From a virus (Duplodnaviria; Heunggongvirae; Uroviricota; Caudoviricetes), in the IMG/VR virus record IMGVR_UViG_2541047938_000007, positions 1 to 11,153 of that record: DNA of 11,153 nt; one strand, written 5' to 3'. The notes beneath the pieces were generated by a model, which was not told where the DNA came from, did no database searches, and was given only the letters and a program-made list of their open reading frames with translations. Shown here in pieces: positions 1 to 10,355 of the stretch. Position 1 is the first letter of the stretch, and every line of letters starts with the position of its first letter. A program made the translations under genes and the position numbers.

Positions 1-321
1 TCATATCGCTGGATTATCGTCTTCCACTGCACGGTTAATGAGATGTGTCAGAATGCCCTTCACATCCACCTCATCAAGAACCTCACCGTCAAGAACTTCA
101 CCATCTACCGTTATCAGTGCATCACCTCTACGCTTGGCAAAGTGACAGCCTCCTGAGTACGAAATCAGGTAGGTGCTATCTGGTGATGGCTTCATTCCCG
201 TTTCTATCACAGCAAACCCATGTGATGTCTCAATCACCAGGCTGTTAGCCGTGACGCCGCAGATAGTCTCTATGGTTAGCGTGCGTTCAATGTAGTCTTT
301 GGCTGGACTTGGAAACCTCAT
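1..321 (-). CDS. hypothetical protein (106 aa), distal gene of a putative SOS-regulated two-gene operon
   Basis: Complete ORF, ATG at 321..319 and stop at 3..1. Its start lies 1 nt after the stop (325..323) of the upstream 79-aa gene, suggesting translational coupling. Contains an internal DGEVLDGEVL duplication encoded by a 15-bp tandem repeat. No family recognised. Confidence 0.5.
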   Translation of the reverse strand: MRFPSPAKDYIERTLTIETICGVTANSLVIETSHGFAVIETGMKPSPDSTYLISYSGGCHFAKRRGDALITVDGEVLDGEVLDEVDVKGILTHLINRAVEDDNPAI

Positions 322-322
322 A

Positions 323-562
323 TCAAAGCCCTCCGTTCGGATTGTACATGAACCACGTCTTGTTCTCCCCGTGGTCAGGGGTGATGTCTTTGAAGCAGGT
401 GGTGTATCTGGCTATCCACTGATTTGCCTCTTCCAGGCTGAGATCCCAGTTGACGTTTAGTAGTTCCTGCACAAAATCAGCAGTTTTCACAATCCTGCGG
501 CCTGACCTTTCATGCACAATAGAGGCCCTGAAGGCAATCTCAATATCTGAACGACGCGGCAT
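323..562 (-). CDS. hypothetical small protein (79 aa), first gene of a putative LexA-regulated operon
   Basis: ATG at 562..560 preceded by GAGGTG about 7 nt upstream (minus-strand reading TTGAGGTGACTACATG). A LexA-box-like palindrome sits 22-37 nt upstream. No family recognised; not obviously DinI-like. Confidence 0.55.
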   Translation of the reverse strand: MPRRSDIEIAFRASIVHERSGRRIVKTADFVQELLNVNWDLSLEEANQWIARYTTCFKDITPDHGENKTWFMYNPNGGL

Positions 563-583
563 GTAGTCACCTCAAAATAAGCA

Positions 584-599
584 CTGTATACATATACAG
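584..599. promoter_or_regulatory. putative LexA (SOS) operator, CTGT-N8-ACAG
   Basis: Sequence cACTGTATACATATACAGca matches the E. coli LexA box consensus TACTGTATATATATACAGTA at 17 of 20 positions, with both CTGT and ACAG arms intact and an AT-rich centre. Lies in the divergent intergenic region, much closer to the 79-aa gene start (562) than to gtrA (678). Confidence 0.6.
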
Positions 600-677
600 C
601 ACATCTTATTCTGATAGTCGATCAAGTTGTCTGTTGGTGCTAAACTTCTGCCTTCTCAGAATTGACTGATTTTTCTA

Positions 678-1040
678 ATGTTAAAACTTTTTGCTAAGTA
701 CACATCGATTGGCGTACTCAACACGCTCATTCACTGGGTTGTGTTTGGTGTTTGCGTGTATGGACTATCAACAAGCCAGGCATTGGCTAACTTCGCTGGC
801 TTCGTCGTCGCAGTGAGCTTCAGTTTCTACGCTAATGCACGGTTCACCTTCAATGCTTCAACATCTACCCTGCGCTATATGCTCTATGTGGGCTTTATGG
901 GCACGCTGAGTGCTGCGGTAGGTTGGGCTGCTGACAGGTGTGGGTTACCGCCAATCGTCACACTGGTGGCGTTCTCAGCCATTAGCCTTGTATGTGGCTT
1001 TTTCTATTCTAAGTTCATTGTCTTTAGGGAAGCGAAATGA
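678..1040 (+). CDS. gtrA: GtrA, bactoprenol-linked glucose translocase (flippase) of O-antigen glucosylation systems
   Basis: 120-aa, very hydrophobic small protein with about four predicted TM segments. ATG at 678; stop overlaps the gtrB start (ATGA at 1037-1040). Size, hydropathy and sequence resemble GtrA/YfdG of serotype-converting phages (recalled). First gene of a three-gene gtr triad. Confidence 0.88.
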
Positions 1041-1952: not shown

Positions 1953-3320
1953 ATGAATATTAAGCTTGATGCTAAATTTTTATTCTTTGGTGCGCCATTA
2001 TTTTTTTATTTCCCTTTTATTATCAATGGTGTTTTATATAGAGATGATATAAATCGAGCAACAGAGAATTTTACATACTGGTCTTGGCTGGGAAGACCAG
2101 TATCAGATTTAATTTGGAAAGTCCTATCTTTAGGAGGTCAAGGACCACTCTTAGAACCATTGACGATTATATTATCTATTTTTATATTGGGTTTTTCAGT
2201 AAATCTGTTTTATCAAAAAACCAATCACTTATTTCATGACGCAGGTCCTTTTGTATATATTTTATTAGTAATATCTCCATTTTACACTCAAAATATTTCA
2301 TATCAATATGATGGCATAACGATGTCAATCGCAGTTGCATGCGCACTGATTGCCACAATTGTCACACTGAAAGAAAACTTAATATCATATTTAGTTCACT
2401 GCGCTTTGCTTGTTATAGCAATGTCAATTTATCAGACAACTCTAAATATGTTTGCAATCCTTTCTTTGGCAATTATTTTCGCGAAGACTTGCACACACAA
2501 AGCACTGCCATTGAAATATTTAGCATGCATCGCCTCATCTTTTGTTCTTGCGTTAATTTTATATAAATTTCTAATTATAGATGTATTTATTTCATCCTCA
2601 CGAAGTGACATATCACTAGACAATCTCCACACAAACTTCATTAACTTCTCATCAATTATAGCATCACCATTTAGAGGTTATTTAGTTTCAATATTTTATT
2701 GCATTGTCGCCTTATCTTTTTATTCTTTAATAAGAAAGAGAGGTGTTTTGATTGGAGTAACGTTCCTTTTCTTCTGTGTAATGGCATTCTGTTTAATTGC
2801 AGGTCCATTTATTTTACTAAAAGAAGGGATTGCAGAGCCTAGAATGTTATTAGGATTCTCACCATTTATATTTCTCTGCCTTTACCCACTTAGAGGGAGA
2901 ATCTCAACAGTATCTTCTGTGATAGTTTTTTCTGTATTTACAATAATATCTTACCAATGTGCCTCTTCAATTAAAACACAGAATGATTATGAAAAATCGC
3001 TTGCCATGCAATCCTCTCAGGAAATTATTAACGCGGTAAAGGAAAAGTCTTCAAAGGTTTATATACAAGGCGAATTTCCGCTATCAAAAATATCCAAAAA
3101 CTCTGCGGCGGATAATGAGTTCATTAACAAAATGATTGCCCCCTCCCCTTGGTATACAAGAATGTTAATTAACATTTATTATCCCGGAACTGTACACATT
3201 GATTGGAAGGGAAAATACTTATCTAGTCACGAATTAGAAAAATGCAATGTCTTAAAGAGTAATATCTTACTAACTATATATAACTGTAATAATATTACCT
3301 ACGTTGAAATTCACAAATAA
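1953..3320 (+). CDS. serotype-specific O-antigen glucosyltransferase (GtrC / type-specific Gtr family), polytopic membrane protein
   Basis: 455-aa ORF starting 5 nt after the gtrB stop. Highly hydrophobic N-terminal two-thirds with a more hydrophilic C-terminal domain. Markedly AT-rich relative to gtrA/gtrB, as is typical for the variable third gene of gtr operons. Exact type not recognised. Confidence 0.7.
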   Translation: MNIKLDAKFLFFGAPLFFYFPFIINGVLYRDDINRATENFTYWSWLGRPVSDLIWKVLSLGGQGPLLEPLTIILSIFILGFSVNLFYQKTNHLFHDAGPFVYILLVISPFYTQNISYQYDGITMSIAVACALIATIVTLKENLISYLVHCALLVIAMSIYQTTLNMFAILSLAIIFAKTCTHKALPLKYLACIASSFVLALILYKFLIIDVFISSSRSDISLDNLHTNFINFSSIIASPFRGYLVSIFYCIVALSFYSLIRKRGVLIGVTFLFFCVMAFCLIAGPFILLKEGIAEPRMLLGFSPFIFLCLYPLRGRISTVSSVIVFSVFTIISYQCASSIKTQNDYEKSLAMQSSQEIINAVKEKSSKVYIQGEFPLSKISKNSAADNEFINKMIAPSPWYTRMLINIYYPGTVHIDWKGKYLSSHELEKCNVLKSNILLTIYNCNNITYVEIHK

Positions 3321-3353: not shown

Positions 3354-5312
3354 TCATTGAGCTTGAGCCGTTAGTATTTGACCACCAGAATACGCAGTAA
3401 GACTAGTAATTTCATTAGCCAAAAGGACTTTGAACATATTTCGATCTTGACCAAATACAGCACCAGAAAAAAATGTACCAAGATTTCTATTTCCTCCGGC
3501 AGTAGGCATTCTTATAAATAAGTATGATGTTCCTTCATATGTCCCTGTAAACCAAGCATCATAATCTGCGAGAGATTGACTATCACAGTGAGCAGCTCTA
3601 ACTAATTTTGCGCGCGTAGAGATATTGCTGCCTACTGTATTAAAGTCATACGCTCCCGCTATGGGATTAAGATCTTGCCCGCTACGTAATGTATAAATAG
3701 TTCCAATGCACCCACGTCCACCATATTGCCCCCCCATAATGCGATAGTACGGACCCGCCGTTTGGTCTGGATTGGGTAGAGTCAAATCTCTACACATTGT
3801 TGTGCTAAATGTAGGAATGGTGGCCGTGCCTCCATCAAAACCGATAGTACTGAATGTTGCTGTTGTAGTATCATAAGCATTGCGCTGAGGCCACCCTGAC
3901 TCTGGTTTGTTACTATATATAATCTCAAACTTGGCACCATTTAATGTTCTAGATCTTGCCCCATTGCAAATGGTATCTGAACTACAAACCAGTTGCTTAA
4001 TGCTTACTTTTGAATAACCTGATATGTCAAACATATACGTCCCTGCAACTTGAGTTTGTGTATACAGTTGTAGGTTATTTATCTGTAAGTTTGCGCCAGT
4101 AGATTTAATTACAGTGCCATTATTATTCCTATTTGGCTGTTCACAACCTAGCGATGAAATGCTAAATGAACCACTATTAAATACAAATGGTGTACCCAAG
4201 CAATCATCTGAAGCTAGAGGTCCAACTTCACAATAAGACACTGACAATTCGAATGAACAGTAGTTTGAACGAAACACACTGCAATTTGCAATAGTGTAGC
4301 TCGTTCCTCCCTTTATAAAAAACCCTCCGTAAATTCCAGCATTATCAGATCCTTGAACAACTATATCTTTTACTGTAATAGCAACAAATGTATTACCACC
4401 AAAGTAGACACCCCACTTCATGGCGAGGATAAATAGATCACTTAATTCTTGGTAAACCGCTGTATTAGGCGTGTAATACCCATAGCTGTCTTCAGTCGTA
4501 TCAATTATCCTGAGACCGTGAATAACATTCCCACGCTTACCTTTATTATAAAACACCGCGTTCACATCCTGTGTGCTAACGCCTACTTTCCTGATTATAG
4601 ACCCCCTACCTTCACCAACAAAACGACTACCAGGTTGTTGGTAGTATAACTCATTATATACATCCTGAAGATCATATAAAATAACACTATCGGTAATAGT
4701 ATAATCTCCAACTGGAACAAAAATGATTTTACCAAACTGGGCAGACACCTTAGATGCTCTATTAAAAGCGAGTGTCCAATCAGGGTCTGAATCAAGTTTA
4801 AAATCCAATACCGAGATTAATTCAGCGTTTTTGTTATGCTGCGTTCTGCTTGCAGTCCCATCAAAAGGCTGCTTAACAGCAATAAGAGCATCTCCGTATT
4901 CAGGAGATGCCAACATCACCCTAAGAGATGAATCTCCAATGCCTACCCATGCTCCAGCGCCAACACCACCACTTGAATCTGGGGTCGAGCCTGCATTTAC
5001 AACTTTTGGAAGGTCACCATCCCAACGGTAATATTCACCGTCACCATCAGGTAACTTCCAGCGTAAAGCTTGATCAGCTTCAGTTAACGTATTGCCTTCC
5101 TGGAAGGAGTCCATCAAATTCCATCCCATGGATGATAGTTTTTCCTGATAGCGCTTTTCCATTCCATACCAGGTAAGGCGATCAACGCCGAATCTGTCTT
5201 TCCATACCTCATTTTCTTTGTCATTAGAAAGGTAGTCAAAGTTCTGAGAATTGTCGTATAAATCTTTTGCAGCAGCAGACCCCAGCGGATTGCCGGTATT
5301 ATAAGTAGTCAT
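3354..5312 (-). CDS. phage tailspike / tail fibre protein (receptor-binding protein, probable beta-helix O-antigen-recognising domain)
   Basis: 652-aa ORF, ATG at 5312..5310 with GAGG 6 nt upstream. Last gene of the minus-strand tail module, directly after the J-like gene. Gly/Ser/Thr/Asn-rich with beta-strand-like periodicity typical of tailspikes. The N-terminal about 150 aa resemble conserved anchor domains of enterobacterial prophage tail fibres (recalled, unverified). Confidence 0.65.
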   Translation of the reverse strand: MTTYNTGNPLGSAAAKDLYDNSQNFDYLSNDKENEVWKDRFGVDRLTWYGMEKRYQEKLSSMGWNLMDSFQEGNTLTEADQALRWKLPDGDGEYYRWDGDLPKVVNAGSTPDSSGGVGAGAWVGIGDSSLRVMLASPEYGDALIAVKQPFDGTASRTQHNKNAELISVLDFKLDSDPDWTLAFNRASKVSAQFGKIIFVPVGDYTITDSVILYDLQDVYNELYYQQPGSRFVGEGRGSIIRKVGVSTQDVNAVFYNKGKRGNVIHGLRIIDTTEDSYGYYTPNTAVYQELSDLFILAMKWGVYFGGNTFVAITVKDIVVQGSDNAGIYGGFFIKGGTSYTIANCSVFRSNYCSFELSVSYCEVGPLASDDCLGTPFVFNSGSFSISSLGCEQPNRNNNGTVIKSTGANLQINNLQLYTQTQVAGTYMFDISGYSKVSIKQLVCSSDTICNGARSRTLNGAKFEIIYSNKPESGWPQRNAYDTTTATFSTIGFDGGTATIPTFSTTMCRDLTLPNPDQTAGPYYRIMGGQYGGRGCIGTIYTLRSGQDLNPIAGAYDFNTVGSNISTRAKLVRAAHCDSQSLADYDAWFTGTYEGTSYLFIRMPTAGGNRNLGTFFSGAVFGQDRNMFKVLLANEITSLTAYSGGQILTAQAQ

Positions 5313-5326
5313 ATGGGCCTCATTAA

Positions 5327-5348
5327 CAAAAAACCTGCCAATGCAGGT
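5327..5348 (-). terminator. putative intrinsic terminator/attenuator between the J-like gene and the tailspike gene
   Basis: On the minus strand ACCTGC-attg-GCAGGT (6-bp stem, 5333-5348) is followed by UUUUUUG (5332-5327), then the tailspike RBS and ATG. Confidence 0.45.
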
Positions 5349-5369
5349 TAATGGAGATGTTATTAGTGA

Positions 5370-7592
5370 TTAAGAAATGTTGCCGGGGTAAGTGGCATTA
5401 TCATATTGATAGAAAGAGTCGCGATATTCTTTGGCTGTTACCTGACATGTTCCGTCAGACTGCGGTGATATCTCTGAGATTAGTGCACTGTAACCAACAC
5501 GTGAAGATTCGCAGAATATAAGACGTGGAGGTTCTATCGATTGATCATTCAGTATGATGCCAATGAACTCATCCTGTTCAGATACCGATAGTTCATAATC
5601 ACTAACTTTAGTAACTGGAAGCAGACCAGAAGCTGATCCATCCTGGTAGCGAATCAATGCGCGAGGATTGTTGAATGTCCAGTCAAGAGGCTCTGAAACT
5701 GTGAATGTCGTTACGCCGCCACTCGTACTCATATCATCGATCAATGTGCTTATTGTTTTGCTACCAGGAATGTCATCAGTAAACACAATTCTGTCACCTA
5801 CGCTATAGCAAAGTGCATCCATTTCCGTGGTCGTTGTATGGGTAAGACGCTGCTGCCTGTACTTCATCAGTCGTCGCATACCTATCTGATAAGCCCTGTC
5901 CTGGTCAAGAACACCATCAAGATCGTAATCTTCTATTTTCACTGGCGTAGGATTGTCAGACGTTCTGCACTGAACAGTCTCTTCAGCCCACGTAGTGCCG
6001 TTAATGTAAGTGACATCCACTCCATCATAATCATCGGCTGATGGTGCAACGAAGGCCGTTTGAAGCGCTTCTGTCATTTCCTGCGGACTAATTATTCCCG
6101 TCCACGTTTTTACCCCCTCCCTTCCCACTGAAGCCATACCGTCAGACAGCAGAAAATAGCTTTTACCTGCGTTAGTGACTTTCTGTAGCATTTCAAGCGC
6201 GGAAACTGAGTCGGTTGTTGCGTAATCGAAAAACTCGCTATCAGGCGTCCAGTAAGATGATTCCAGCATATCAATCACTTCGTTATCCATCGCAAGCCCT
6301 AACTCATTACCAATGTGGTAAAGCGCGCCTGAAATGCTCCTGGAAATACCGGAATCATAAATGCGTGTGGCGACTACGTTGACACGGCGATCAGACTGAG
6401 CGGCAAGCTTTCCACCTGTTTCGACTGAGACAGCCATAGTGGTTACACCAGAGTATGATGATGGTCTTGAAAGCAACCTCCCCCTTAATGACTGCCAGTA
6501 CATGTTATCCCTGCTGTTATCCTGGCCTTGTTCGTTCGTTCTCCTGCATCTAACCTCCACCAAACCGGCCGATGCCAGCGTGATACGTTCGGTAAAACCT
6601 AACCCATTAATATTTTGCTGATTGTAAGACCCAGTTTTGCTTGTCCATCCTGAACCCGAACCGTAAACACGGTACTGAATTTCCCACTGAACAATCCTGT
6701 TCTGCTTCTTGCCTTTCTTGTTATACCCGCAAATACCGTTAGCCAGGTCAACAACGCCGCCAACCAGGTCAGTTAGTCCCTGAATCACCTGAGGGTCTTT
6801 GAAAACATCGCCCATGTCAGTGATCGCATTCTGTAATCCTGACAGGTCAACATTTGCAAGACCGGTAGCAATCTCAATTTTTACGCCGTTAACCTGCGTC
6901 TCCATGTCTTCAAACAGGGAGTTTACTTTCACCAGTTTTTCGATGTCTGCATCATCAGGGGCAACACCAAACTGCTTTGCCGCGTCCATGTACTGGCGAA
7001 GCTTTTCACCACCCTGATCAAGTAAGGGCAGGAGCTTTGACAGGTCATTACCAAGGCTTTCGAGAATGGTTGTTTTTTCGGCGTTTGTTTTTATCTTACC
7101 AAGAGCATCGCTGATAGCGAGAAGTTGTTTATCAGGTGACTCACCGGCTAATTTTTTTGCGGATAATCCAAGCGCATCAAGCGCACCGACAGCTTCACCA
7201 GATTTATTTAAGACCGCATCACCAATCTTATCGCCAATATCTTTAAAGATATCGGCCATCTGGTCACCAGATACCCCAGCCTTTTCGGCTGCATACTGCC
7301 AAGCCAGCAGAGACTGAGTAGACATATTGAGCGACTTAGCCCAACGGTCTGTTTCAGTGATCTGTTTGGAAGTGGTTTTCAGCAGGTTATAACCAGCAAC
7401 GCCTACACCAATTGCCGCAGCGCTTGCTGCTGTCGCAAAAGCGGTGAACGCGGTGGCCGCAGCCTTGGCGTCGGATTGTACCTGTTTACGCCATTTTTGA
7501 GATGCTCGCTCAGACTGGCTTAGGCCAGAGACAAAACCACCAACCTTAGCAACAAGGTCGATAGTCAACGTGCCGAGGGATTTACCAGCCAT
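5370..7592 (-). CDS. tail protein: tape-measure-like N-terminal region fused in frame to a host-specificity (lambda J-like) region
   Basis: 740 aa. ATG at 7592..7590 lies 1 nt after the stop of the GT frameshift product, the expected tape-measure position. Residues 1 to about 290 are Ala/Lys/Gly-rich and coiled-coil-like, typical of a tape-measure N-terminus. From about residue 300 there are J-like motifs (LRGRLL...PSSY; AYQIGMRRL...FSVGDRIVFTDD; PPRLIFCESSRV), aligned by eye to the central part of lambda J. Confidence 0.65.
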   Translation of the reverse strand: MAGKSLGTLTIDLVAKVGGFVSGLSQSERASQKWRKQVQSDAKAAATAFTAFATAASAAAIGVGVAGYNLLKTTSKQITETDRWAKSLNMSTQSLLAWQYAAEKAGVSGDQMADIFKDIGDKIGDAVLNKSGEAVGALDALGLSAKKLAGESPDKQLLAISDALGKIKTNAEKTTILESLGNDLSKLLPLLDQGGEKLRQYMDAAKQFGVAPDDADIEKLVKVNSLFEDMETQVNGVKIEIATGLANVDLSGLQNAITDMGDVFKDPQVIQGLTDLVGGVVDLANGICGYNKKGKKQNRIVQWEIQYRVYGSGSGWTSKTGSYNQQNINGLGFTERITLASAGLVEVRCRRTNEQGQDNSRDNMYWQSLRGRLLSRPSSYSGVTTMAVSVETGGKLAAQSDRRVNVVATRIYDSGISRSISGALYHIGNELGLAMDNEVIDMLESSYWTPDSEFFDYATTDSVSALEMLQKVTNAGKSYFLLSDGMASVGREGVKTWTGIISPQEMTEALQTAFVAPSADDYDGVDVTYINGTTWAEETVQCRTSDNPTPVKIEDYDLDGVLDQDRAYQIGMRRLMKYRQQRLTHTTTTEMDALCYSVGDRIVFTDDIPGSKTISTLIDDMSTSGGVTTFTVSEPLDWTFNNPRALIRYQDGSASGLLPVTKVSDYELSVSEQDEFIGIILNDQSIEPPRLIFCESSRVGYSALISEISPQSDGTCQVTAKEYRDSFYQYDNATYPGNIS

Positions 7593-7593
7593 G

Positions 7594-8237
7594 CTATGTC
7601 CACTCCTGCATAGCCTGTTCCAGTGAAATGGAAGGCTCGTTAATGTGTGGTGTGAAGTCTGTTACTTTGAAGTGGGGTGAATCTTTTCCACGGTTGACGT
7701 TTGCCAGCACAGAAGAAATTAGGCCAGCGGCCCACTCGGTACGCATCATTCCGTTAAGGCTTCCGTACTTTTGACGGTAAAGAACCCAGTCGCGATACTC
7801 TGTAACGCTAACGCGTTCTTTTGCTTCAGCAATGGTGCGGCCGCCGATCCCGTTGAGAACTAATTCACACCAGAATTCGTCGTCTGCGCTGAGTTCGCCT
7901 TTCCCAGGTCGTTAACCTGCTGAATAGCGACAAGCAGAGCAACCGTAAGAGCACCATCGAGTGCGCCGCGCTCAGGATCTGCTTCACCAGTGATATCGGC
8001 AACAGTGAAAACTGGAGCGCCATTTTCATCACAGATGGATGCAGCGATACGCCCTGCTACACCATCAATTTTCCCCACCGCTGAAAGAACATTTGATACC
8101 GCGTCGTGATAACCCATTGGTCGGATATAAACGGTAGCTGTGATCTCTTTATCGCCCTGCTTCCAGGTGATTTCCTTCTCAACAGGACGACCAGTAAACG
8201 CCCCTGCCTGTTTTAACGAATCCAGATTCAGTTTCAT
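7594..8237 (-). CDS. tail assembly chaperone G-T fusion made by programmed -1 ribosomal frameshift
   Basis: The -1 frame stays open from the heptamer GGGAAAG (7905..7899, minus strand) for about 100 codons to a TAG at 7596..7594, which ends 1 nt before the next gene's ATG. This is the same arrangement and the same heptamer as lambda G/GT. Confidence 0.6.
7860..8237 (-). CDS. tail assembly chaperone (lambda gpG analogue)
   Basis: 125 aa, ATG at 8237..8235 with GAGAGGAAAG upstream. Sits immediately upstream of the tape-measure-like gene. Contains the slippery heptamer G GGA AAG 13 codons before its stop. Confidence 0.75.
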   Translation of the reverse strand: MKLNLDSLKQAGAFTGRPVEKEITWKQGDKEITATVYIRPMGYHDAVSNVLSAVGKIDGVAGRIAASICDENGAPVFTVADITGEADPERGALDGALTVALLVAIQQVNDLGKANSAQTTNSGVN

Positions 8238-8254
8238 TTCTTTCCTCTCAGTTT

Positions 8255-8270
8255 GCGGGGTTTCCCCCGC
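8255..8270 (-). repeat. GC hairpin copy 1 (mRNA sense GCGGGG-gaaa-CCCCGC), between the major-tail-like ORF and the G gene
   Basis: 6-bp stem with a GNRA-type GAAA loop on the late transcript, followed by the RBS and ATG of the chaperone gene. Identical core to the copy at 8943-8960. Confidence 0.5.
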
Positions 8271-8287
8271 TTATTAATGCCTGGTTA

Positions 8288-8689
8288 TTAGCTCGTTGGT
8301 TGGGCCTTTGGAACCCAAACACCTTGCCCTGAACGCTGAATGGTTGCGGAAGTTTGCACGACCGTATTCGCCTGGAAGTCGAACGGGAAATCTGAAACAT
8401 AACCCTGGAATACATACCAGGTACGTGTATCCGGCAGAGAAAGACCATCAACTGCATCTGGATCACCAGACGTCGCTACCGTTGGTTCATCCGTTCCGTC
8501 AGCCCAGCCAATAGCGAAGGTCAGGTTTGTCTGGTCACTGGATTCAGCCAGGTTGCTCAGCATTACATGGCTGGAGTTTGCCGGGTCTGCGTTAAGAGCT
8601 ACAGTAGCCTGACCGGGGGTGCGCAGACCTTTTTTGTAGGAACGAGTATTGGTTTCACTCAGACAGGTATCTTCAATCTGGTCTGACAA
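8288..8689 (-). CDS. major tail protein-like ORF, possibly 5'-truncated (lambda V position)
   Basis: 133-aa ORF in the ORF track that actually starts at a TTG with no convincing RBS. Occupies the position just upstream of G/GT, and has weak by-eye resemblance to the lambda V core. It is in the same frame as the upstream 56-aa ORF, separated by a single TGA. May be a remnant rather than an intact gene. Confidence 0.4.
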
Positions 8690-8764
8690 AGGAAAATATC
8701 GGAGTCCAACCGCGAGATGATGGTTGCTGTAGTGCTTTCTCTTTCCGTCTAAAAGGATTCCACA

Positions 8765-8935
8765 TCAGCCATTCTCCGCGTTTTCTTTTTTACTTTTACG
8801 CACCACTGCTTTTTTGCTGGTTACGTATTCCGCCTTTTTCAGCAGAACCAGCACCTTTGCGCACTGGTCATTCACAATTTTCTCATCACCTGGCAATGAG
8901 TCATGTGTACGCTGAAGGTATCTGATTTTTGCCAT
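8765..8935 (-). CDS. small Lys-rich hypothetical ORF (56 aa)
   Basis: ATG at 8935..8933 sits 5 nt after the hairpin at 8943-8960. A strong SD-like GAAGGAGG lies immediately upstream of that hairpin. Not in the supplied ORF track (shorter than 60 aa). Coding status uncertain. Confidence 0.3.
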   Translation of the reverse strand: MAKIRYLQRTHDSLPGDEKIVNDQCAKVLVLLKKAEYVTSKKAVVRKSKKENAENG

Positions 8936-8942
8936 TTGAAAT

Positions 8943-8960
8943 GGCGGGGTTTCCCCCGCC
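8943..8960 (-). repeat. GC hairpin copy 2 (mRNA sense GGCGGGG-gaaa-CCCCGCC), between the structural-gene fragment and the 56-aa ORF
   Basis: 7-bp stem with GAAA loop, same core as copy 1. On the mRNA it is flanked by GAAGGAG upstream and an AUG 5 nt downstream. Confidence 0.5.
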
Positions 8961-8967
8961 CTCCTTC

Positions 8968-9468
8968 TTAGCTGGTTGAGCCAGTGCTGTAATCCACGTC
9001 AGAGATAACGGCTACGGCTGCATCACGGCGACGCTTCCAGTTAATCCAACGCTCGGCACGGATTGCCACGCTGTTGGTCTGGAACATAGACACCAGTTCA
9101 ACTGGAGTTGGCGTTGTGCTGTCGTGGGTCGGATCGCTCTGCATTTCCAGAGAAGCTTCGCGAGACATATCAACGGCGACGCCGCCATCATCTGCCAGAT
9201 AAACATCTGGTGCGTTAACCAGTACCAGTTGGTTGCCAACGTACTGTGAAACGATCACCGGCAAGCCCTGGAACGTACCGCCCAGCATGGTCATATCTGG
9301 GTATTCTTTCTGACCAAGCGCGTTTTTACGCATAGACAGAGTAAGTGCCGTAGTGCTGGACATCAGCCATACCGCACCATTCGGCTGCAGGTTGTTCGTA
9401 ATGAACTGACCAAATGCTGCAGAAGCATCAGTACAGGCTAACCATGAGCATAGTTCGATGTCACGCGT
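8968..9468 (-). pseudogene. 5'-truncated phage structural gene fragment (capsid or head-tail protein-like C-terminal part)
   Basis: The reading frame is open from 9468 down to the TAA at 8970..8968. The annotated ATG at 9363 has no RBS and is probably an internal Met. The fragment runs head-on into the 5' end of the integrase fragment. Family assignment is tentative. Confidence 0.4.
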
Positions 9469-10057
9469 TTACAGGTGGGGATATCAACGTGGATTTGTGC
9501 CAGGCAACCCATGCGTAGGCGTCGATAAATACCCTAAACCTCAGCGCGACCGATACATTACGGATGAAGAGTATTTAGCGATTTATGACTGTGCTACTGA
9601 TCCGGTCAAAGCAGCAATGGAAATTGCTTATCTCTGTGCCGCCAGGGTTTCCGATGTTCTGAAAATGGACTGGAATCAGATAATGGATAAAGGAATTTTC
9701 ATTCAACAGGGTAAAACTGGAGTTAAGCAGATTAAAGCGTGGACAGACCGTTTGCATTCAGCAGTCAATCTTTGCAGGAAATCAGGGGAAGATGGCGCTG
9801 TCATCAAAACCATGTACGGAGAGCGATATTCCTATAAAGGTTTCAATGAAGCCTGGAGAAAGGCGAGAAATGCGGCTGCTGAAAAAATTGGCAGACCGTT
9901 AGACTGCACGTTCCATGATCTGAAGGCGAAAGGCATTTCTGACTATGAAGGAAGTGGCCGCGATAAGCAAAAATTCAGTGGTCACAAAACTGAATCACAG
10001 GTGCTGGTATACGACAGGAAAGTAAAAATCAGCCCAACTTTGAACAGAAAAATGTGA
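9458..10057 (+). pseudogene. tyrosine recombinase (phage integrase), C-terminal catalytic-domain fragment, 5'-truncated
   Basis: 199-aa ORF with catalytic-domain features (AARVSDV Arg region, HDLKAKG, GHKTESQVLVYDR with the C-terminal Tyr). Lacks the N-terminal arm-binding and core-binding domains; there is an in-frame stop at 9407-9409 just upstream. It is transcribed toward the 3' end of the adjacent tRNA, as expected for an int next to attL. Confidence 0.8.
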
Positions 10058-10069
10058 GTTTGAGATACA

Positions 10070-10099
10070 GCGCCGGGTGCAAATCTGGCGTTATTTTTT
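10070..10099 (+). terminator. putative Rho-independent terminator downstream of the integrase fragment
   Basis: Stem CGCCGG / CTGGCG (one G-U pair) with an 8-nt loop, followed by TTATTTTTT, starting 13 nt after the int stop. Confidence 0.5.
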
Positions 10100-10126
10100 C
10101 TCAGTGGATTTTCTCATTTTTTCTCA
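10093..10126. repeat. direct repeats ATTTTTTCTCA (x2, plus a third TTTTCTC) between int and the tRNA 3' end; candidate att-arm/IHF-type sites
   Basis: ATTTTTTCTCA at 10093-10103 and 10116-10126, with TTTTCTC also at 10109-10115. Located in the expected attL arm region. Function not demonstrable from sequence. Confidence 0.3.
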
Positions 10127-10172
10127 ACGGGATGTTGGTCACTGAATCGAAACACTGTAAGTGCTTGAATGG

Positions 10173-10262
10173 TGGCGGAGAGAGGGGGATTTGAACCCCC
10201 GGTAGAGTTGCCCCTACTCCGGTTTTCGAGACCGGTCCGTTCAGCCGCTCCGGCATCTCTCC
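10173..10262 (-). tRNA. serU: tRNA-Ser (anticodon CGA)
   Basis: The minus strand reads GGAGAGATGCCGGAGCGGCTGAACGGACCGGTCTCGAAAACCGGAGTAGGGGCAACTCTACCGGGGGTTCAAATCCCCCTCTCTCCGCCA (90 nt). It has a 7-bp acceptor stem, anticodon stem CCGGT/ACCGG with loop CUCGAAA (anticodon CGA), a long variable arm, a T-loop GGTTCAAATCC, and an encoded CCA. Confidence 0.9.
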
Positions 10263-10355
10263 GTTCAGATGGTTGCCATGATGCCAGGAAATTTGGCATT
10301 TTAACAGTCCCTGTCCGTGCAATTTTGTTCAAGTGACGAGTTTGCGAGCAAAACG

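Follow-up and report, generated by a model that had tools for sequence, protein, structure and literature searches.

Does an imperfect tandem repeat of two 15-base units, lying in frame within a small prophage gene, record a recent duplication from which length variants of the protein arise, or does it reflect an older feature of the protein itself? The repeat considered here occupies positions 75-104 of the window, by which is meant the whole 11,153-nucleotide stretch of viral DNA that was analysed. Judged from sequence, it is not a recent duplication, but an old and conserved double peptide motif, at which one unit has occasionally been lost.

The repeat and its register

Two adjacent 15-base units, caagaacctcaccgt at positions 75-89 and caagaacttcaccat at 90-104, are identical at 13/15 bases, with mismatches at 82/97 and 88/103. 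Tandem Repeats Finder (TRF) delimits the array as 74-102, with a period of 15, 1.9 copies, 92% matches and a score of 51, which together with the unit-by-unit comparison bears out the preliminary description of a 15-bp in-frame tandem repeat with two mismatches, encoding DGEVL-DGEVL. The host open reading frame (ORF) lies on the minus strand (1..321), and residues 73-82 of its product read DGEVLDGEVL. In codon register, unit 1 spans 91-105 (D73-L77) and unit 2 spans 76-90 (D78-L82); the coordinates 75-104, as first given, denote the same array one base off this register, which is without consequence. On the coding strand the units read GAT GGT GAA GTT CTT (unit 1) and GAC GGT GAG GTT CTT (unit 2), and both mismatches are synonymous and in the third position, GAT/GAC for Asp and GAA/GAG for Glu.

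Period-15 tandem pairs with at most two mismatches are expected 0.014 times per window, as estimated from 500 first-order Markov shuffles, against two observed (75-104 and 2772-2801), so the DNA repeat is not a chance match. Once the two DGEVL peptides are taken as given, codons drawn independently for each unit, according to the codon usage of the window, agree on average at 11.55/15 bases, with P(>=13) = 0.21. Identity at synonymous sites is thus not above the peptide-only expectation, and the DNA similarity of the units needs no recent event. The other observed pair, TTCTGTGTAATGGCA at 2772-2801, is a second two-copy period-15 tandem repeat (86% matches, TRF score 46), and sits within a GtrC-like glucosyltransferase gene (1953..3320).

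A UmuD'-like host protein

The host gene (1..321, minus strand; stop codon 1-3, ATG 319-321) encodes a protein of 106 aa, whose assignment as UmuD'-like draws on the ORF, PHROG and hhalign matches, and AlphaFold2 (AF2) modelling with Foldseek. Its match to phrog_3469, 'UmuD-like protein', is full-length (E 8.6e-41), residues 1-105 pairing with positions 1-105 of a profile of length 106. Alignment of the family profile to E. coli UmuD by hhalign scores 98.7% (E 3.6e-16, 119 aligned columns), and the profile also matches the UmuD' structure 1umu in the PDB (E 0.004). The UmuD alignment starts exactly at Gly25-Phe-Pro-Ser-Pro, the N-terminus of cleaved, active UmuD', and the 106-aa protein bears an N-terminal GFPSPAxDY motif. 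An 11-residue alignment gap, at about residues 33-37 of the 106-aa protein, takes out the UmuD GDSM loop with its nucleophile, Ser60, and with the loop missing the Ser-Lys dyad of UmuD (Ser60/Lys97) was not found in the 106-aa protein; in the HMM alignment Ala37 faces Ser60, and Lys63 aligns within one residue of Lys97. Because the Ser60 loop is missing and the protein starts at the N-terminus of cleaved UmuD', the family would seem to consist of UmuD' relatives that are non-proteolytic and constitutively 'processed'.

The protein has no match in Pfam, S24 included, and does not reach the NCBIfam cut-offs, scoring 22.8 against 120 bits for HumD and 17 against 110 for PRK10276 (UmuD). Matching UmuD but falling far below these cut-offs, it is, by profile comparison, a divergent UmuD' relative and not a member of a curated family. 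Its phage homologues were detected by tblastn only, megablast of window positions 1-700 against phage records returning no match. A MORN-like reading of the segment YSGG...DGEVLEGEVL, which came from a weak PDB match to Morn1 and from multi-stretch matches to two proteins of ~830-850 aa (P0095 and P0103), was rejected, as P0095 and P0103 are unrelated low-complexity repeats.

The AF2 model of the 106-aa protein has a pLDDT of 77.5 and a pTM of 0.60, and its best PDB matches in Foldseek are UmuD' 1ay9 (TM 0.59), 1umu, the UmuD-RecA structure 8gmt and LexA C-domains. Across these matches TM values are 0.46-0.59 and probabilities 0.99-1.00, with weak E-values (0.014-0.05), and the protein is predicted to share the S24 β-fold. 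In the model the repeat segment is located between the penultimate and last β-strands, where it aligns to residues 113-122 of E. coli UmuD (AYSPITISSE), a stretch that contains no repeat. Unit 1 (73-77) is modelled as a turn and a two-residue strand, and unit 2 (78-82) forms the start of a short helix (79-84), after which comes the last strand (86-95); the model thus does not make the units equivalent in structure. The model of a one-unit relative (P0017, discussed below) retains the same strand order without the short helix, at a pLDDT of 65.2 versus 77.5, a difference in AF2 confidence that does not gauge stability and says nothing firm on function.

Conservation of the double motif across the family

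Two units are present in all of the 17-18 close two-unit genes compared, which come from E. coli, Pseudocitrobacter, Citrobacter and IMG/VR prophages, and in all five distant phage genes examined (mEp390, Flotzy, Klebsiella BUCT711, Klebsiella Kp4882-3 and Enterobacter ENT1). In an alignment reaching down to ~30% identity, 36/38 family members have the two-unit state, and the gaps at the motif consist solely of the unit loss in P0017 and a one-residue gap in P0053. A duplicated state confined to one lineage with single-copy outgroups was not found, the outgroup mEp390 itself having two units.

The commonest residues among the 38 aligned members, with their counts in brackets, are D (32) in unit 1 and E (28) in unit 2 at the first position, G (36) and G (33) at the second, E (25) and E (24) at the third, A (17) and A (22) at the fourth, and I (24) and L (28) at the fifth. 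The family motif can be written [DE]GE[AV][IL]-EGE[AV]L, with D[DE]V.V after it. Unit 2 therefore usually opens with Glu, and the perfect DGEVL-DGEVL of the window reflects the change E78D, found in the window allele alone among the sequences examined; the codon for residue 78 is GAC in the window versus GAA in E. coli Z142-3, which is 98.8% identical. The difference between GAA in unit 1 and GAG in unit 2 is common to most close relatives. Unit-to-unit DNA identity among relatives spans 8/15 to 13/15, and the gene of Klebsiella phage Kp4882-3, at ~50% protein identity, also has 13/15.

The reading of the repeat as a recent tandem duplication fails on this evidence, since the two-unit form is family-wide, the Asp and Glu starts of the two units are kept, and the synonymous sites have drifted. 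An old, fixed duplication was to be recognised, according to the preliminary description, by homologues all carrying two copies with the same substitutions, and this is largely what the comparison gave, apart from the relatives that have a single unit.

Length variants among relatives

An intact close homologue occurs in 9/5,426 complete E. coli genomes, six with two units and three with one; the gene is rare, and the sample correspondingly small. The one-unit strains (S163-2, TUM9754 and DETEC-P61) have a 306-nt gene for a protein of 101 aa, from whose repeat 15 nt are cleanly missing. The 101-aa allele of the S163-2 type is also found on two Logan contigs (L008 and L009), and its protein cluster, P0017, has 11 members. 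Since its ORF is intact and is preceded by LexA-like boxes (CTGT-N8-CCAG and CTGG-N8-ACAG), the 101-aa gene may well be functional. A second lineage (P0024, on contigs L010-L013) also lacks 15 nt, in another register: the S163-2 allele (L007/L008) retains GAT and then GAG, while L010 retains GAA-GGT-GAG, that is, the Glu of unit 2. These different retained codons indicate that the two 15-nt losses have different junctions.

In some 100 further complete E. coli genomes, including many of O26, the matches covered the same stretch of the query and correspond to an unannotated, decayed remnant. The two remnants inspected, from O26:H11 11368 and JNE082640, adjoin intS/tRNA-Arg, between intS and an acyltransferase gene, and are 5'-truncated and stop-ridden. 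That of O26:H11 11368 (L025, 1408-1660) has lost 15 nt at the same place in the repeat, and that of JNE082640 (L026, 1469-1700) has lost 12 nt, which is the spacing of an internal repeat, GGTGAGGT / GATGAGGT.

In a neighbour-joining tree of ~280 sites with the repeat masked, rooted on the two-unit mEp390 and without support values, the four deletion carriers, two of which are pseudogene remnants with less certain alignment, each occupy a branch of their own, nested in two-unit lineages or next to them. One-unit forms nested in two-unit clades are to be read as losses. No indel was seen outside the repeat across the 106 codons of the intact close homologues. Taken together, sequence comparison indicates that the repeat region is a mild, occasional hot-spot of in-frame deletion, with four independent losses.

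Neither the protein searches nor scans of viral and metagenome contigs, made with an anchored DNA pattern permitting one to three units, found a three-unit allele. The anchored scans gave five two-unit copies and one chance match, a 70-nt hit on a metagenome contig (L037) that was set aside as unrelated sequence. E. coli CUWW10 (100% identical to the window) and Z142-3 have two units each. The comparison of copy number among homologues that had been proposed as a check therefore yielded one- and two-unit forms, and never three. The expectation that the repeat would give rise to in-frame length variants holds for losses of one unit (15 nt); it does not extend to gains, and near-identical strains are alike.

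One further Logan sequence, P0022 (171 aa), is an apparent fusion of the 79-aa partner described below with the UmuD'-like protein, and departs from the latter directly after DGEVLD, probably through a frameshift or faulty assembly at the repeat or close to it.

A putative SOS-regulated operon in a decayed prophage

Upstream of the UmuD'-like gene on the minus strand lies a 79-aa gene (323..562, stop codon TGA at 323-325), identified as an ORF that matches phrog_3893 (E 6.4e-33), a group annotated as of unknown function. A single base separates its stop codon from the start codon of the 106-aa gene (TGAtATG), a spacing that makes translational coupling of the two genes likely. RefSeq names some copies of the 79-aa gene 'DNA polymerase V', a label without support in Pfam, NCBIfam or PDB sequence searches with the protein.

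A canonical LexA (SOS) box, CTGTATACATATACAG, is located at 584..599, ~22 nt before the start codon of the 79-aa gene; 0.04 matches would be expected by chance in the window. In most related loci, CTGT-N8-ACAG likewise stands immediately before the homologous gene or operon, and as a sequence motif it points to SOS (LexA) regulation of the putative operon. A terminator-like site at 602-581 was rejected as the palindrome of the LexA box. Some homologous loci (such as L005) have no 79-aa gene, and here the LexA box directly precedes the UmuD'-like gene.

Overall, the window represents a decayed prophage. It carries gtrA, gtrB and the GtrC-like gene (1953..3320), then, over 3354-10320, genes for a tailspike (652 aa), a 740-aa gpJ-like fragment, a tail assembly chaperone, a truncated tail tube protein and a 199-aa integrase fragment; a tRNA-Ser (10173-10262), followed by mtfA, marks the far end. 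E. coli CUWW10, which matches the first 700 bases of the window at 100% identity, carries the element between zinT and tRNA-Ser/mtfA, and this copy has IS1 insertions in gtrB and in the tailspike region. In mEp390 and Flotzy, the homologous gene has tail-fibre/DinI genes on one side and attP/int on the other. No experimental study of the family came up when the literature was searched for prophage proteins like UmuD in combination with DinI. To our knowledge, the sole relative that has been tested experimentally is HumD of phage P1.

Origin of the repeat and alternative explanations

The explanation that we consider likely, with good though not complete confidence, is that the repeat is an ancient, conserved and selected double peptide motif, of which the DNA repeat is a by-product, and which is subject to occasional, one-way in-frame losses. 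The 30 bases would encode an old double acidic motif, [DE]-G-E-[AV]-[IL] plus E-G-E-[AV]-L, and the tandem repeat seen in the DNA would follow from the repeat in the peptide. A founding duplication, if there was one, would be older than the divergence of the whole family, the units having presumably drifted apart at synonymous sites afterwards; the peptide repeat could stem either from an ancient 15-nt duplication or from convergence on a similar turn motif. Short direct repeats in the region (GGTGA[AG]GT.. and GA.GAGGT) may then give occasional 15-nt or 12-nt in-frame deletions, most plausibly by replication slippage between them. The one-unit (15-nt) deletions would yield the 101-aa variants, such events being rare on an evolutionary scale and restricted to losses. 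The repeat, its conservation throughout the family, the independent deletions and the lack of expansions are shown by the comparisons made here, while slippage and a function of the double motif are what we infer from them.

A caveat to simple drift comes from the fourth position of the units, which is Val/Val throughout the E. coli/Citrobacter clade and Ala/Ala in the majority of distant members, a split that could reflect homogenisation, by loss and re-duplication or by conversion, instead of drift. Concerted evolution of this kind, with the units kept alike and the repeat periodically renewed, would also account for the agreement of residues 76 and 81 as Ala/Ala in 12/38 members, Val/Val in 3/38 and Thr/Thr in 1/38, and the one-unit intermediates that it calls for exist as intact genes. 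Mixed states at this position (A/V, V/A, S/A, T/A and others) are, however, common, the units keep their different first residues (D in unit 1, E in unit 2) throughout the family, and the synonymous sites differ as much as random choice predicts; moreover, the covariation at position 4 could equally be due to side-chain packing or contact, or to shared ancestry. Concerted evolution is on balance unlikely.

A recent tandem duplication by slipped-strand mispairing in this lineage, at a locus that can expand and contract, is less probable again, and we give it little credence. The in-frame units with their 13/15 identical bases, the perfect peptide repeat of the window allele and the existence of one-unit relatives would all fit such an event. 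Two units are nevertheless present in the outgroup and throughout the family, the degree of identity is expected from the peptide alone (P = 0.21), the GAA/GAG difference between the units is shared with relatives, the nested one-unit forms are losses, and no three-unit allele was found in the collections searched.

A chance resemblance, without shared origin or consequence, is scarcely tenable. The window does contain further two-copy period-15 arrays with similar TRF scores, but the shuffles predict 0.014 such pairs with at most two mismatches, the peptide repeat is conserved across the family, and the deletions cluster exactly at the repeat.

Least credible, and almost certainly wrong, is a contingency locus, at which protein length would be switched in a programmed way and at high frequency, as happens in phase-variable genes for surface or restriction functions: a unit length that is a multiple of three and the existence of length variants speak for it, and nothing else does, against two imperfect units only, near-identical strains (CUWW10 and Z142-3) that agree in copy number, variation by loss without expansion, and a host protein that is small, cytoplasmic and of SOS type, encoded behind a LexA box, instead of a surface or specificity determinant. 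The repeat would accordingly not be a programmed or fast-switching device for length variation.

Comparison with known systems and significance

As an ancient motif with occasional losses, the locus resembles other cases of indels mediated by slippage between short direct repeats, in that the deletions correspond in length either to the unit (15 nt) or to the interval of a shorter internal repeat (12 nt), the junctions lie inside the repeat, the frame is kept, and the events recur on independent branches; it differs in that the relatives show losses only, and never gains. The contingency loci of Neisseria and Haemophilus surface genes consist of many perfect units of 1-7 nt, which usually shift the reading frame and vary between sibling cells. 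The present locus shares with them a tandem repeat in a coding region, but has two imperfect 15-nt units and is stable among near-identical strains.

Within the UmuD' group, the closest comparison is with UmuD' itself and with phage P1 HumD, reportedly the subject of work by McLenigan and co-workers in 1999 (J Bacteriol 181:7005, cited in PMC4713147). The 106-aa protein is like these in starting at the UmuD cleavage position, in aligning to UmuD over its whole length, in its predicted fold, in being phage-borne as HumD is, and in being encoded behind a LexA box. It is unlike them in the absence of the 11-residue Ser60 loop and in scoring below the NCBIfam cut-offs, and UmuD has no counterpart of the double DGEVL/EGEVL motif. 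The phage members of PHROG 3469 (mEp390 gp26 and Flotzy CDS0037) agree with it in full-length match, genomic position and two-unit motif, and differ in being ~50% identical and in the Asp that replaces Glu at residue 78 in the window allele.

A rather speculative proposal, which we hold to be doubtful, assigns the motif (DGEAI-EGEAL-DD) a specific role. The protein would be a LexA-controlled prophage mimic of UmuD' without a self-cleavage loop, and the motif its interface, through which, with the coupled 79-aa partner, it might bind host UmuC or the RecA filament and so tune SOS mutagenesis; the one-unit (101-aa) and two-unit (106-aa) alleles would then differ in activity.

As an instance of a known textbook process, by which short direct repeats in coding DNA lead to occasional in-frame deletions, the repeat matters little. 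It does illustrate that what appears as a 'tandem duplication' at the DNA level can mirror an old, selected peptide motif, and that for two-copy, imperfect repeats of codon length, homologues should be compared before the repeat is called variable. Of more interest than the repeat itself is the operon that hosts it, with its LexA box, its 79-aa gene and a relative of UmuD' that lacks the Ser loop.
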